64,000 nt of DNA, from assembly GCA_026708055.1 (NCBI GenBank), contig JAPOVS010000054.1, positions 61,697 through 125,696 on the forward strand, given 5' to 3'. The position numbers and the translations under genes were made by a program. Source of the stretch: a bacterium (lineage in GTDB: Bacteria > Actinomycetota > Acidimicrobiia > Acidimicrobiales > CATQHL01). Numbering within the stretch: position 1 is the first letter of the stretch; every line of letters starts with the position of its first letter. The notes under the pieces were generated by a model. The model had not been told where the DNA came from and searched no databases. It worked only from the letters and a program-made list of their open reading frames with translations. Shown piece by piece: positions 15,689-31,495 of this stretch.

Positions 15689-17458
15689 TCAACAGCCGCC
15701 GTCGGCGAACGGATTGGAGTTTCTGGGCGGCGTGAGGCTCGGATTCATGAGGAAGTCGCTCCGGCACAGGCCGCCGAACTCTCCCATCAGATTCGACATG
15801 AGTGTGAGATTCCCCACGTTGAACAGCAGATGCCAAAGCGACGCCCCGTCGGTGACGTTGTCGGTGTACCAGGCGGGCACCTCCCCGGCCAGCCCACTGC
15901 GCAGGATGCTCTTCTCCTGCTCGGTGGGCGCATCGGGAGTGCCCGCGCAGGAGGACCCCGGTCCGTAGTACGTCAAAGGGGCTTCGGGAAAACGAGGTGC
16001 ATCATCGTGTCGGCGATGACCTCCTCGCCGCCTGCCCGGCAGCCGGGATAGTTGACGGCGAAGTACAGCTGAGTCGCCCCCCAGGCCCTGTTCGGTGTTA
16101 ATGCGGTGGCCTGGTCGTACACGTGAGCCAACTCGTGGACGCCGACGTGCAGCAACTGTTGCATGGTGCGCTCGCCCAGGTCGGTACCGAGTGCTACCTG
16201 CGATGTCCGGCACTCGAACGTACCCGCATCGAAGAACCCACAACTGACACTGGCGACCCCACCGGATGCCGCCTCGAAAAGTCGGACATCGTCGCGGACG
16301 TGGTCCCAGGCGATGCGCAACCACGGGAACTCCCCCTCGTTCCGGCGCACGACATCATCCATGGCCTCGCGGAACGGACCGGGGTCGATCCTCCATTCCT
16401 CGCTGCTCCAGTCGGGCACGGTGAGAGTGGGGATCACCGTCGGCCGGCCATCCAGCCCCTTCGCTCCCGGTGCCAGGACTTCCGCAGGCGTCAAACGTTG
16501 CTCGGTGTCGCCGACGCCGAGTTGCCCGTAACGATTGTCGCCCCAGCACAGAACCTCGCGCTCCGCCGTGACTGCGCAGGCATGCGAGCCGTCCCAGAAA
16601 GTGCGGCTGCCGACGCTGATCGCGACCACATCGCTGACGTTTCGCAGCTGCTCAGCCCGCGATCTCTGCTCCCTCGTGCCGATGCCCAGTTCGCCCGCGG
16701 CGTTCGCTCCCCAGCAGGAGACCGTCCCGTCCCGGTGCAGCGCGCAGGAGCTGTAGTGGCCCGTGTCCACGGCCACCGCGTCGGTGATGCCGAGCACCGC
16801 GGTTGGCGAGAGTCCTCGTGCCGTCCGCCTTCCTGCACCGAGCAGTCCACTCCGGGAGACCACCGTGGCGCCCCCGTGGAAGTACGCCCTGTCGCTCCCC
16901 CAGCAGGAAATCCCGCCCGACCTCTGCACAGCACAAGTGAAAGTACTGCTCGGTGACACCGAGACCGCATCGTCGATACGGCGCACCTTCACCGGCGAGA
17001 GACGCTCCGACCTCGTTCCGTCGCCGAGTTGTCCGTCGTCGTTGTAACCCCAGCAGGAGGTGGAAGCTGCCCGCCGCGACCAGAGCAGCGCCGGGTTCCG
17101 GCGGAGGTACCTGCGGCGTCTCGGACGGACTCGCGGCGGGCGCAGGGACGGTCACCGTCAGGGTTGAACTCGCCAGCCAGGGCCCCACGCCGGCGGTGGC
17201 GGGGAAGAACCGGCGCGACGGCAACAGCCGCTCGCCCCACGAGCCGTCGGCGTCGCGCTGCTGCAAGCCGAACTCGACGCGACCATCATCCAGGCGCCGC
17301 GCCACGATGCGCACGTCCACCTCCGACGCCCCGCCGGCCGACTCCTCAACGCCCTCCTGCGCCGAACCAGCCGAAGGGATCGCACTGACGGTCAGCACGG
17401 CGATCAACACCGCGGCCGCCGGGCGGACGAACCGCTGAGCGATTGACGACCTCCGCAT
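15689..17458 (-). pseudogene. secreted N-module + RCC1 propeller + HExxH C-terminal domain protein, disrupted by two 1-nt frameshifts
   Basis: Three ORF pieces (16652-17458, 15973-16992, 15689-16324) together are colinear with the 23287-25890 product. The frameshifts are near 17060 (ttccacCtcctgctgg) and near 15998 (gttttccc). Confidence 0.75.
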
Positions 17459-17537
17459 GCTCAGTAACCCCCTCTCGGTGCTGCAGGCAAGGGCATCGCC
17501 TGATCGACGATTGCTTCCGTGACCTCCGCCGGCTTGC

Positions 17538-29445: not shown

Positions 29446-29506
29446 GGCCCCGCGCGACGGATGGACCAGGCCCGGGCCGGCACAGGACCGGGCGTTGCCC
29501 GGCCGA

Positions 29507-31495
29507 TCAGCAGCCGCCGTCGCGGAACGGGTTGGTGCGCGGCGGCGGAACCAGGTTCGGCTCCAGCGGGTACCGGAACCAGTCGGTGGAGCAGAACCCG
29601 CCGAACTCGTTGCCCAGATTGGCTAGAAGCTGGGGAGCCAGGACGCGCCGCAGCACTCGCCACAGCTCGGCACCGTCAGTGATGTTCTCGATGTACCAGT
29701 CGGGCGTTTCGCCGGCCAGACCGGCGAGCACGACCCGCTCCGCCTCGCGGTCCGGCTCGCCCCCCACGCCGGGACAGCCCGCCCCGTAGTAGGCGAGGCG
29801 GGCCGACGGCACAACGAGGTGCGCCATCGTGTCGGCGAGGATCTCGGCGCCGGACCGCTGCCCGTAGTCCCGGAAGCAGTCCGGGTAGGTCCAAGCGAAG
29901 TAGAGCTGCACCGCACCCCAGGCCGGTCCGGCCGACAGGCTGGTCGTGCTGTCGTAGACGTGCGCCAACTCGTGGACCGCGACCCCGAGGGTCATCTCGG
30001 CGACTTCCATGTGTTCCGACCAGCAGCCGTACAACCCGGCGACGAGCTCGCAGTACGAGCGAACCGCCCCGCGGAAGTCCTCGATCCGCCCGGCGACGGT
30101 TCGCTCCCGGATCCTGTTCCAGGCCAGGCGCAGCCAGGGGAACTCGGCCTCGCGCGCCGCGACGGCCTCGTCCAGCCAGCTTCGCAGTAGATCGGTCTCG
30201 TCGGCGGGGATCCGGTTCGCGGGGATTGCCCGCGCCGCCAGAACCGGAACGGGAACCAGCCCGCGTGCGAGGCTGCCGTCGCCCAACTGCCCGGCGCCGT
30301 TCCCGCCCCAGCAGGAGTAGGAGCCGTCGGTGTGGGCCGCGCAGGCATGCGGGGCGAGGCGGGTGGAGCCGGCGCTCATCGTGACCGCCACCGCGTCGAC
30401 GACGCCGGCGACGCGGGCCGGCCGCTGCTGGGGCGCCGTGGTGCCGTTGCCGAGCTGGCCGGCGGCGTTCTTCTCACCCCAGCACGACACACCGCCGTCG
30501 CCGTGTACCACGCAGACCCCGCCGTCACCCACCGCCACCGAGGCGGCGCCGCCGACCCCGTCGACCCGCTGGGGACTGGCCACGTCGGCGACCGGCCAGC
30601 AATAGACCTCGCCGGCGACGGTGACCGCGCAGGTGCGGTCGGCTCCGGTCGACACGGAGACCACGGCGGGGAGACCCTCCACGGGCGCGGGGCGGAAGGC
30701 GCCGCGGTTGCCGGCCCCGCCCCCGTAGCCCCAGCACGTCAAGGCGCCGCCGGTATGGATCACGCAGTTGGAGGAGGGGCCGGCGTCAATCCATGCGGCG
30801 TCGGTGATGTCGGGGACAGGCTCGGGGACATCGACCGAGGCGAGCGTTGCGCCGCCCAACTGGCCCAGCGCGCCGGAACCCCAGCAGGAGACCTGCCCGC
30901 GGGCATGCACGACGCAGGTGTGGTCGGACCCTGCTGCGAGCGCCACCGCGTCGGAAATGCCGGGCACCTTCTCGGGCAGGTAGCCGCTGAACGGCTCTCC
31001 CCGCCCGAGTTGCCCCTCGCGGCCCGCTCCCCAGCACGACACGGTCCCGTCGCCACCCAGCGCGCACAGGTGAAGCTCCTGGTGGGGATGATCGCCGCTG
31101 GTGACGCTCACGACATTCCGCAGGCCAGCGGCGCTGAACCGCTCCCGGATGCCGTCGTACCCCCAGCAGGTCACGCGCGCGTCGCGGCGCACCGCGCAGG
31201 TGCGGCCGCGGGAGGCGGCGATGAGGCTGTCGCCGCTGCGTGCCGCGCCCCGCACGAACTCCGGGCGCCGCAGCACCGTCGCCTCGTCGGGCGCGCCGGA
31301 GGCCGGTCCCGGTTGCTCGGGTCCGAACTCCTCCGGCGGCAGCACGACCCGCGGCGGCGCAGGACCCGCGGCGGCGGCTGTCACGCCGGTCGTGAACACA
31401 ACAGGGGCCGCAACGCTCACGAGGCAGAACACCAGGAGGCACGTTGCCGGCCCGGATCGCCGCGACCGGGTCCGTGCCCGGCCGCCTCCGGGCAC
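29507..31495 (-). CDS. secreted RCC1 propeller + HExxH C-terminal domain protein (no N-module)
   Basis: Signal/TM segment, RCC1 blades, HELAH at 29960-29974, C-terminal NPFRDGGC. Confidence 0.8.
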   Translation of the reverse strand: MPGGGRARTRSRRSGPATCLLVFCLVSVAAPVVFTTGVTAAAAGPAPPRVVLPPEEFGPEQPGPASGAPDEATVLRRPEFVRGAARSGDSLIAASRGRTCAVRRDARVTCWGYDGIRERFSAAGLRNVVSVTSGDHPHQELHLCALGGDGTVSCWGAGREGQLGRGEPFSGYLPEKVPGISDAVALAAGSDHTCVVHARGQVSCWGSGALGQLGGATLASVDVPEPVPDITDAAWIDAGPSSNCVIHTGGALTCWGYGGGAGNRGAFRPAPVEGLPAVVSVSTGADRTCAVTVAGEVYCWPVADVASPQRVDGVGGAASVAVGDGGVCVVHGDGGVSCWGEKNAAGQLGNGTTAPQQRPARVAGVVDAVAVTMSAGSTRLAPHACAAHTDGSYSCWGGNGAGQLGDGSLARGLVPVPVLAARAIPANRIPADETDLLRSWLDEAVAAREAEFPWLRLAWNRIRERTVAGRIEDFRGAVRSYCELVAGLYGCWSEHMEVAEMTLGVAVHELAHVYDSTTSLSAGPAWGAVQLYFAWTYPDCFRDYGQRSGAEILADTMAHLVVPSARLAYYGAGCPGVGGEPDREAERVVLAGLAGETPDWYIENITDGAELWRVLRRVLAPQLLANLGNEFGGFCSTDWFRYPLEPNLVPPPRTNPFRDGGC

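Follow-up and report, generated by a model that had tools for sequence, protein, structure and literature searches.

A 64,000-nucleotide stretch of contig JAPOVS010000054.1 (assembly GCA_026708055.1, Acidimicrobiales), referred to below as the window and having a G+C content of about 70%, carries a cluster of four paralogous genes, designated A to D, in which an RCC1-type propeller precedes a cysteine-rich C-terminal domain with an HExxH motif. An initial reading made without database searches (the sequence-only reading) had interpreted these genes as a family of secreted, propeller-guided metallopeptidase-like proteins, expanded locally by duplication. All four were confirmed on the minus strand at the positions given by that reading, and the HELAH codons it had listed for A, B and D proved exact (Table 1). 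Hydrophobic, signal-like N-termini are present in B, C and D. For C, an alternative upstream start (TTG at 28339) would extend the protein to 781 amino acids (aa).

The central part of the proteins was readily assigned with Pfam. Matches to the RCC1, RCC1_2 and WD40_RLD families had E values of 1e-62 (B), 1.5e-42 (C) and 3e-35 (D), and these families were also above threshold in the middle piece of A. Protein B scored 212.9 bits against WD40_RLD (cutoff 150), and the RCC1 and RCC1_2 scores of B, C and D were far above the cutoff. Each of these three propellers contains seven C-W-G/S/P blade motifs, which, together with the Pfam scores, bears out the seven-blade region described initially. Pfam detected nothing over the last ~240 residues or over the ~60-aa repeats found near the N-termini of window proteins, and NCBIfam gave no match at all for the A-D proteins.

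Gene A had been described as frameshifted, which is correct but incomplete. A tblastn search with B aligned its residues 10-244 with positions 17416-17060 (frame -3), residues 411-768 with 17064-15985 (frame -1) and residues 768-867 with 15988-15692 (frame -3). Compared to B, ~166 aa (roughly three blades) are missing at the junction near 17060, which also shifts the frame, and a second frameshift is located near 15986, giving two frame changes in total. Gene A is thus a decaying pseudogene. Its middle piece shows complete identity to P0003, a protein named 'MAG: hypothetical protein OXG55_11915 [bacterium]' by NCBI, so that the source is a metagenome-assembled genome (MAG).

Table 1. Position of the RCC1 gene cluster, its motifs and the neighboring features within the window (ORF, open reading frame).
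Feature	Position	Strand	Remarks
Gene A, pseudogene	15689-17458	minus	three ORF pieces; tblastn of B against the region
A, piece 1	17458 to ~17060	minus	N-terminus with one N-terminal repeat
A, middle piece	17064-15985	minus	last blades and first half of C-terminal domain; HELAH codons 16123-16137
A, piece 3	15988-15692	minus	remaining C-terminal domain, past frameshift near 15986
Gene B, 867 aa	23287-25890	minus	3 N-terminal repeats behind signal-like N-terminus, RCC1 propeller of 7 blades, C-terminal domain intact
B, C-terminal domain, 237 aa, 6 Cys	23287-24000	minus	domain alignment, AlphaFold model
B, HELAH codons, residues 718-722	23725-23739	minus	
B, E-A-I-A-D, E756 and D760	23611-23625	minus	candidate third zinc ligand (Glu) and Asp at ExxxD spacing
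B, RCC1 propeller (approximate), aa 231-608	24067-25200	minus	Pfam and blade motifs
B, N-terminal repeats, 3 units	25243-25794	minus	186-bp DNA tandem unit, 3.0 copies, 98% identity
Gene C, 759 aa from ATG	25994-28273	minus	signal-like N-terminus, 2 N-terminal repeats, propeller of 7 blades; catalytic residues of C-terminal domain degenerate
C, C-terminal domain, 244 aa	25994-26728	minus	predicted pseudoenzyme
C, HQLAH	26468-26482	minus	catalytic Glu replaced by Gln
C, E-F-L-T-Y	26336-26350	minus	Asp of ExxxD replaced by Tyr
Gene D, 662 aa	29507-31495	minus	N-terminus resembling a signal or anchor, N-terminal repeat absent, propeller of 7 blades, C-terminal domain intact
D, C-terminal domain, 234 aa	29507-30211	minus	HELAH 29960-29974, EILAD 29831-29845
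Fifth related gene, 797 aa	20606-22999	plus	RCC1_2-type repeats preceded by 2 N-terminal repeats (171-bp tandem unit, 100% identity); C-terminal domain absent
N-terminal repeat sites	25243-25794 (B), 27800-28162 (C), 17138-17317 (A), 20678-21028 (797-aa gene), 38394-38747, 44039-44422		
Two paralogous ~340-aa proteins	13361-14404, 14684-15676	plus	N-terminal minimal nucleotidyltransferase (Pfam NTP_transf_2/Polbeta)
AbiEii nucleotidyltransferase toxin	18737-19972	minus	Pfam E = 1e-23; PADLOC AbiEii E = 5e-24
245-aa ORF overlapping AbiEii	19530-20267	minus	no family match; possibly AbiEi partner
Ankyrin protein, 430 aa	38130-39422	plus	signal-like segment, two N-terminal repeats, ankyrin repeats (Pfam Ank E = 7e-23)
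Direct repeat, 536 bp, 99.4% identity	37498-38033 and 40083-40618		flanks ankyrin gene
RCC1_2 protein, 979 aa	40645-43584	minus	14 RCC1_2 repeats (Pfam E = 6e-128) after Pro/Thr-rich, Cys-containing N-terminal region
Secreted-looking protein, 222 aa	43889-44557	minus	two N-terminal repeats and short tail; no Pfam match

The C-terminal domain, initially estimated at about 260 aa, spans about 235-245 aa according to the boundaries of a profile hidden Markov model (HMM). When searched against the window, this model retrieved the domains of D (1.9e-111), B (2.9e-107) and C (6.7e-100) and two pieces of A (3.5e-59 and 1.4e-45), with no other match in the window. The domains of the paralogs align over their full length, and the alignment contains all of the landmarks noted before: PWLR, a Cys pair, VH(E/Q)LAHVYD, E..AD, GLAGE.P.WY, EFGG.C and the terminal NPF.DGGC. 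Exactly six cysteines are found in the domain of each of B, C and D. In B, the candidate glutamate ligand E756 is located 34 residues past the second His of HELAH.

An exhaustive HMMER profile search of 1.84 billion cluster representatives (50% identity clusters) retrieved 366 clusters at E≤1e-3, 225 at E≤1e-10 and 39 at E≤1e-30. This search superseded a word-indexed search with the B domain, which returned only 7 proteins. The latter evidently undercounts, because it missed orthologs of 645 and 781 aa encoded by a related Acidimicrobiales genome (OY760933.1, designated L001); its index seems to favor proteins of query length.

In about 160 aligned instances of the domain, the H, E and H of H-E-x-x-H are conserved in 94, 93 and 93%, respectively, which answers a check proposed by the sequence-only reading, and the E, A and D of the downstream E-x-x-A-D in 94, 95 and 91%. 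Further conserved positions are P-W (91 and 99%), L-Y-F (83, 93 and 84%), F-G-G-x-C (97-99%) and the final Cys (100%). The full putative catalytic pentad (HExxH plus ExxxD) is intact in 131 of the 158 complete instances (83%), and six more read HEHEE. An alignment of 24 sequences, whose members are 23-47% identical to B, is invariant at W26, H88, E89, H92, Y112, E126, A129, F209, G210, G211, C213, P231 and G236. The cysteines C52 and C61 of the profile, equivalent to C57 and C63 of the B domain, either occur jointly or are both missing, and the pairs C57-C63, C120-C151 and C213-C237 are proposed to form disulfides.

A confident AlphaFold2 model of the B domain, built on a 10-sequence alignment, had a predicted local distance difference test (pLDDT) value of 86.2 and a predicted TM-score (pTM) of 0.88. 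In its N-terminal half, helices 7-20 and 25-37 are followed by strands 38-41, 47-57 and 60-71. Helix 79-96 bears HELAH (88-92), helix 104-116 bears Y112, and helix 121-136 bears E126 and D130, while the C-terminal part is a helical subdomain. In the model, the elements follow one another as in zincins (backing helix, sheet, active-site helix, glutamate helix), and H88, H92 and E126 would meet at one site. The distal glutamate put forward initially as a possible third ligand is thus favored both by its conservation and by its predicted position on helix 121-136.

The window domains matched no family above threshold in Pfam-A 2025, NCBIfam r20 or PDB sequences. For 24 diverse members, Pfam gave only sub-threshold matches to the zincin clan and NCBIfam nothing relevant, and a single-domain search of PDB sequences produced no relevant match. 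The sub-threshold Pfam matches comprised SprT-like (18.6 bits, cutoff 25.6), YgjP-like, M10, MPTase-PolyVal, M48, M35, M64 and M91, and the weak Foldseek matches were also mostly zincins: abylysin 4jiu (TM-score 0.18-0.35), M34, SprT, ArdC and lethal factor. It should be noted that these weak zincin matches are carried by the HExxH helix. Foldseek found no match at E≤0.001 in BFVD. Two outcomes that the sequence-only reading had named as speaking against it were therefore not encountered: Foldseek searches of PDB and BFVD yielded no confident hit among non-enzymatic folds, and Pfam, NCBIfam and PDB sequences yielded none to a described peptidase family. Metzincins (HExxHxxGxxH/D plus a Met-turn) and aspzincins (HExxH plus GTxDxxYG) were rejected as candidates: the sequence is HELAHVYD..T in the window and mostly HELAHVYTL in relatives, and past the second His it lacks a Gly at +3 as well as a His or Asp at +6. 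A gluzincin-like mode of action is the mechanism best supported by the motifs and the model, and the domain was assigned to none of the known peptidase families tested.

Taken together, these data point, with a probability of roughly 60%, to B and D as exported, probably surface-associated zinc metallopeptidases of the gluzincin type that belong to an uncatalogued family, with the RCC1 propeller as the putative recognition module, C as a predicted pseudoenzyme and A as a pseudogene. Such a protein would consist of a Sec-type signal peptide, zero to three N-terminal repeats possibly anchoring it in the envelope, a seven-bladed RCC1 propeller acting in recognition or docking, and a catalytic domain of ~240 aa, probably held by three disulfides. 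Zinc would be bound by both HELAH histidines and, on the helix further downstream, by the Glu of E-x-x-A-D, while the HELAH Glu would serve as the general base. Orienting a His ligand would fall to the ExxxD Asp, in the style of thermolysin and neprilysin, and the invariant Y112 is a candidate transition-state stabilizer. Judging from sequence and model, B and D would bind zinc and carry out proteolysis. C, in which both the base Glu and the Asp have been replaced, is therefore probably a non-catalytic binding paralog that retains the fold. The secreted location proposed before is supported by the signal-like N-termini, the six conserved cysteines and the exclusively extracellular partner domains of the relatives. 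The term metallopeptidase-like is upheld by the conservation of the motifs and by the lack of a confident match to a rival fold or a described family, and is qualified by the lack of a significant structural or profile match. Of the four copies to which it had been applied, only B and D look competent.

Several observations weigh against this interpretation. Foldseek found no match at E≤0.001 in the PDB, the best being abylysin 4jiu with E = 1.7 and a probability of 0.18. An hhalign comparison with thermolysin, to be taken as a lead only, gave a probability of 8.8%, and the family profile retrieved only noise (spectrin, GGDEF) from PDB sequences. Model confidence is lowest over the invariant tail NP[WF]xDGGC (pLDDT 53-72). 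About 13% of the instances lack the catalytic set, and the fold therefore clearly serves non-catalytic roles too. None of the features identified points to a particular substrate. Finally, the restriction to sponge-associated bacteria discussed below rests on the names of MAGs and on a scan biased to close relatives, and is best regarded as a strong lead.

The degenerate copies are often found in tandem with an intact one (P0030, P0041, P0047, P0063), resembling enzyme/pseudoenzyme pairs. Some relatives contain up to three tandem copies, and the proteins bearing the domain reach 6,353 aa. The domain is located at the extreme C-terminus in 52 of 118 relatives with a full-length copy; elsewhere it is internal, with FN3 starting immediately past the invariant ...DGGC. 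The Pfam partners in 70 full-length relatives were fn3 (33), RCC1-type (17-19), SLH (14), SWM_repeat (9) and RTX (5), in addition to cadherin-like, CWB2 and PPC domains, and these proteins contained no catalytic Pfam domain and no Pfam family over the new domain. A large subgroup, of about 470-480 aa, consists of SLH and the domain alone. The fusion to RCC1 emphasized initially is therefore real, but the domain is not RCC1-specific, since only about a quarter of the relatives sampled have RCC1 as a partner and FN3 is more frequent. It is thus a mobile module of surface proteins. In one distant relative (ERZ25072076 contig, positions 7217-10850 of locus L064), the gene for the FN3-zincin-like protein P0058 adjoins that of a giant (>2,700 aa) Peptidase_S8/P_proprotein/FN3/Calx-beta protein, a surface protease of a different class.

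All partner domains mediate adhesion or anchoring and give no clue to a substrate, and the tandem arrays resemble binding-repeat architectures. These features could reflect a zincin-derived but mainly non-catalytic binding or scaffolding module, in which HExxH and ExxxD bind a structural metal or ligand and the proteins are purely adhesins assembled from RCC1, FN3 or cadherin modules. The degenerate instances, including C, which have lost catalytic residues yet stay intact ORFs, and the lack of a significant match to an active peptidase are compatible with such a role. We nevertheless consider it quite unlikely, since the base Glu (93%) and the Asp of ExxxD (91%) are conserved like the His ligands even in sequences that are 23-30% identical, and these two residues serve catalysis or ligand orientation, not metal binding alone. 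Moreover, the degenerate copies usually accompany an intact one.

An HMM search revealed a second module, the ~60-aa N-terminal repeat, which the sequence-only reading had not mentioned. It is present in one copy in A, three in B and two in C, directly after the signal-like segment, and has the consensus VRIVARRLxDGRVEFGLQQR..WGERLLPSRRFFP..GRWLxSS. Six window proteins carry this repeat in front of differing C-terminal parts (RCC1-zincin, RCC1_2 only, ankyrin or nothing). In a large sequence collection, a word-indexed search retrieved 51 short unnamed clusters, all matches being ≤105 aa. An AlphaFold model from a window-only alignment (pLDDT 67, pTM 0.38) defined only a beta-hairpin. The repeat may be an envelope-anchoring module, because it occupies the same position as the SLH and CWB2 anchors of relatives.

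The distribution of the C-terminal domain was analyzed in 185,579 GTDB species representatives, using search patterns that favored close relatives. Nearly all of the 60 loci identified came from MAGs of Acidimicrobiales/Acidimicrobiia (among them Ca. Poriferisodalis, Ca. Poriferisocius, Ca. Spongiisociaceae and Ca. Aldehydirespirator), of Dehalococcoidia and Chloroflexota, of one Gemmatimonadota and of one Spirochaetia, and many belong to the bin series IRC, APA, RHO and SB06xx. In the NCBI taxonomy, the Poriferi- and Spongii- taxa fall within Acidimicrobiia. Poriferisodalaceae (TK06) and Aldehydirespiratoraceae (UBA11606) are families with sponge-symbiotic lineages, the APA bins are tied to Aplysina aerophoba and one IRC/SB06xx bin to Ircinia ramosa (PMC11706023), and bins SB0665 and SB0668 are listed as sponge-associated Entoporibacteria (PMC7883664). 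The carriers, from at least four phyla, thus belong mostly to MAG series documented from, or named for, sponges, and the window genome probably represents a sponge-symbiont Acidimicrobiales lineage. Since the module occurs in surface proteins of mostly sponge-linked MAGs, its likely targets are extracellular, either the host matrix or surface, or envelope proteins of the symbiont.

The second of these targets is the core of an alternative that differs from our preferred explanation in target and not in chemistry, namely that the proteins are active metallopeptidases acting on the cell's own envelope (S-layer, cell wall, or maturation and turnover of surface proteins), with the link to sponges resulting from lineage sampling. 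The large SLH subgroup, the CWB2 or SLH anchors of other members and the placement of the window repeat where those anchors sit would all suit such a function, as would the housekeeping-type neighbors (OYE, Lactamase_B, nitroreductases, acyl-CoA dehydrogenase) and the synteny of the locus in a related genome. It is judged unlikely, given that the family spans Acidimicrobiia, Dehalococcoidia/Chloroflexota, Gemmatimonadota and Spirochaetia, whose envelopes are very unlike, and that the traceable MAG series come from sponges. The fusions to RCC1, FN3 and cadherin and the ankyrin protein with the same N-terminal repeat also fit the repertoire of sponge symbionts, which are enriched in ankyrin, FN3, cadherin and other eukaryote-like domains (PMC11706023).

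A more far-reaching proposal, which we regard as doubtful, is that of a new peptidase family by MEROPS standards, spread horizontally among unrelated sponge-symbiont phyla, displayed on the surface with RCC1, FN3 or cadherin modules, and cleaving matrix, adhesion or innate-immune surface proteins of the sponge as a dedicated symbiosis factor. Dead paralogs such as C would then be decoys or adhesins, and the NP[WF]xDGGC tail might be a regulatory (latency) element.

Members of the family are named in public records only as 'hypothetical protein' or 'cell wall-binding repeat-containing protein'. Literature on Poriferisodalis, and on RCC1 together with sponges or metalloproteases, contained no description of the domain or of an RCC1-peptidase-like fusion, and neither RCC1 nor metallopeptidase is mentioned in PMC11706023. 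The domain family, its motif set and Cys pattern, and its fusion to RCC1, FN3 and SLH modules therefore appear to be undescribed in all libraries and literature queried; the proposed chemistry is the well-known zincin mechanism and not categorically new. If the preferred reading of B and D as gluzincin-type peptidases is correct, the family would represent uncatalogued extracellular zinc proteases with at least 366 clusters at 50% identity, and protease classification would gain a gluzincin-like family with a natural series of active (B, D) and dead (C) members. Research on sponge symbiosis has so far centered on binding-type eukaryote-like proteins (ankyrin, LRR, TPR, FN3), and an enzymatic module on such domains would be a concrete candidate for a symbiosis effector.

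The age of the cluster was assessed by comparison with the complete genome L001 (3.49 Mb), whose gene order is two nitroreductases, the D ortholog, Lactamase_B, the counterpart of C, OYE and the A ortholog. The window has the same order, except for a segment between OYE and C that is absent from the syntenic L001 locus and comprises the AbiEii/AbiEi-like module, the 797-aa gene and gene B. Identity of the C-terminal domains is 68% between A and B, 61-65% between either of these and the A-type copy of L001, 76% between the two D copies, and 41-48% across types. Only 46% was found between C and its positional counterpart, which keeps HELAH and ELLAD, so that C appears as the fastest-diverging paralog in the window. 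The closest match to B among GTDB representatives (L002) is 74% identical, and two to four copies within 12 kb are common in related genomes. On the basis of these identities and the shared order, types A/B, C and D predate the split of these genomes. The A-type ortholog of L001 (8589-11098) is split into two overlapping ORFs (482 and 365 aa) at a position unlike the lesions in the window, which reflects either independent decay of this copy or a long-read indel error.

The paralogs are clustered, as the assumption of local expansion by duplication implied, but its recency was overstated: with C-terminal domains 41-68% identical and the order A-OYE-C-LactamaseB-D-nitroreductases retained in L001, the sequence comparisons indicate an old and conserved cluster and no recent local burst. 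The recent event at the locus is the tandem duplication of N-terminal repeats inside genes. In the 797-aa gene, a 96-bp tandem array (22329-22858, plus strand; ~4.4 copies, 92% identity) encodes near-identical 'GRFTAIDGSCGLRADGAIICWRYDDEETYGPE' blades, and represents a recent intragenic repeat expansion.

The presence of AbiEii, together with an HExxH domain placed C-terminally on large repeat proteins and encoded in clustered copies, brings to mind polymorphic toxins, in which zincin-like Tox-MPTase1-5 domains are known (PMC3482391). In that case the domain would be a metallopeptidase effector against competing bacteria, and the paralogs alternative toxin cassettes. This is highly improbable and was rejected on architecture: the C-terminal domain stays constant among the paralogs instead of varying, none of B, C and D is followed by a small ORF of the immunity type, and the window proteins and 70 relatives contain no RHS, filamentous-haemagglutinin, LXG or WXG trafficking modules. 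In addition, no Tox-MPTase or other toxin family was found in the Pfam scans, the domain is often internal or tandem in relatives and then followed by FN3 arrays, and its six conserved cysteines suggest an oxidizing extracellular milieu and not the cytoplasm of a target cell. An anti-phage defense system was also rejected. PADLOC models gave no match for B, C, D or the 797-aa protein, and only the AbiEii gene and the two nucleotidyltransferases matched, the latter pair, which adjoins pseudogene A, weakly to the candidate defense families PDC-S09 and PDC-M05A.

The remaining neighbors include further proteins of the eukaryote-like type. The 430-aa ankyrin protein is typical of sponge symbionts and has its N-terminal module in common with the RCC1-zincin genes. 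The direct repeat at its flanks duplicates the 3' part of the ORF at 37239-38033, repeated at 39641-40618, and points to a recent acquisition of the ankyrin cassette through segmental duplication or insertion. The 979-aa RCC1_2 protein lacks both the N-terminal repeat and the zincin-like domain.

Of the known systems with which the cluster may be compared, the Tox-MPTase1-5 and PVC-metallopeptidase domains that polymorphic toxins contain (Zhang et al. 2012, PMC3482391) are likewise small, zincin-like and previously unrecognized, with an HExxH motif, and terminate large repeat proteins of bacteria. They differ in that the window proteins show no Pfam match to them, no immunity genes and no RHS-type repeats, and that the domain is constant among the paralogs. 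Like the eukaryote-like proteins of sponge symbionts, the window encodes ankyrin and further RCC1 proteins, whereas RCC1 is absent from the domains tabulated for such symbionts (PMC11706023). The propellers resemble those of bacterial RCC1 (RLD) proteins, with seven blades and strong RCC1, RCC1_2 and WD40_RLD scores.

The best, though non-significant, Foldseek and Pfam matches of the C-terminal domain were to the minigluzincins (abylysin/proabylysin, 4jiu) and to the SprT-like and YgjP-like families (PF10263, PF01863), with which it shares a compact core of a three-strand sheet, an active-site helix and a Glu helix. Those proteins are cytoplasmic or membrane-associated, have neither the Cys pattern nor the C-terminal subdomain, and in SprT the third ligand is His, not Glu. 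The classical gluzincins (thermolysin, M4; neprilysin, M13; MEROPS clan MA(E)) are not matched significantly by sequence, profile or structure. Unlike their catalytic units, which are far larger, the window domain comprises about 240 aa, with an extra helix between the active-site and Glu helices, six conserved cysteines, and the C-terminal motifs GLAGExPxW[YF], [EQ]FGGxC and NP[WF]xDGGC, which have no counterpart in M4 or M13. The third-ligand motif is ENIAD in neprilysin and EAISD in thermolysin. The window domain resembles both in its probable extracellular location, in HExxH on a predicted helix that follows a beta-sheet and a backing helix, in a downstream helix with a conserved E-x-x-x-D, here E-[IL]-x-A-D, and in the 34-residue spacing from the second His to the Glu, which is within the gluzincin range.

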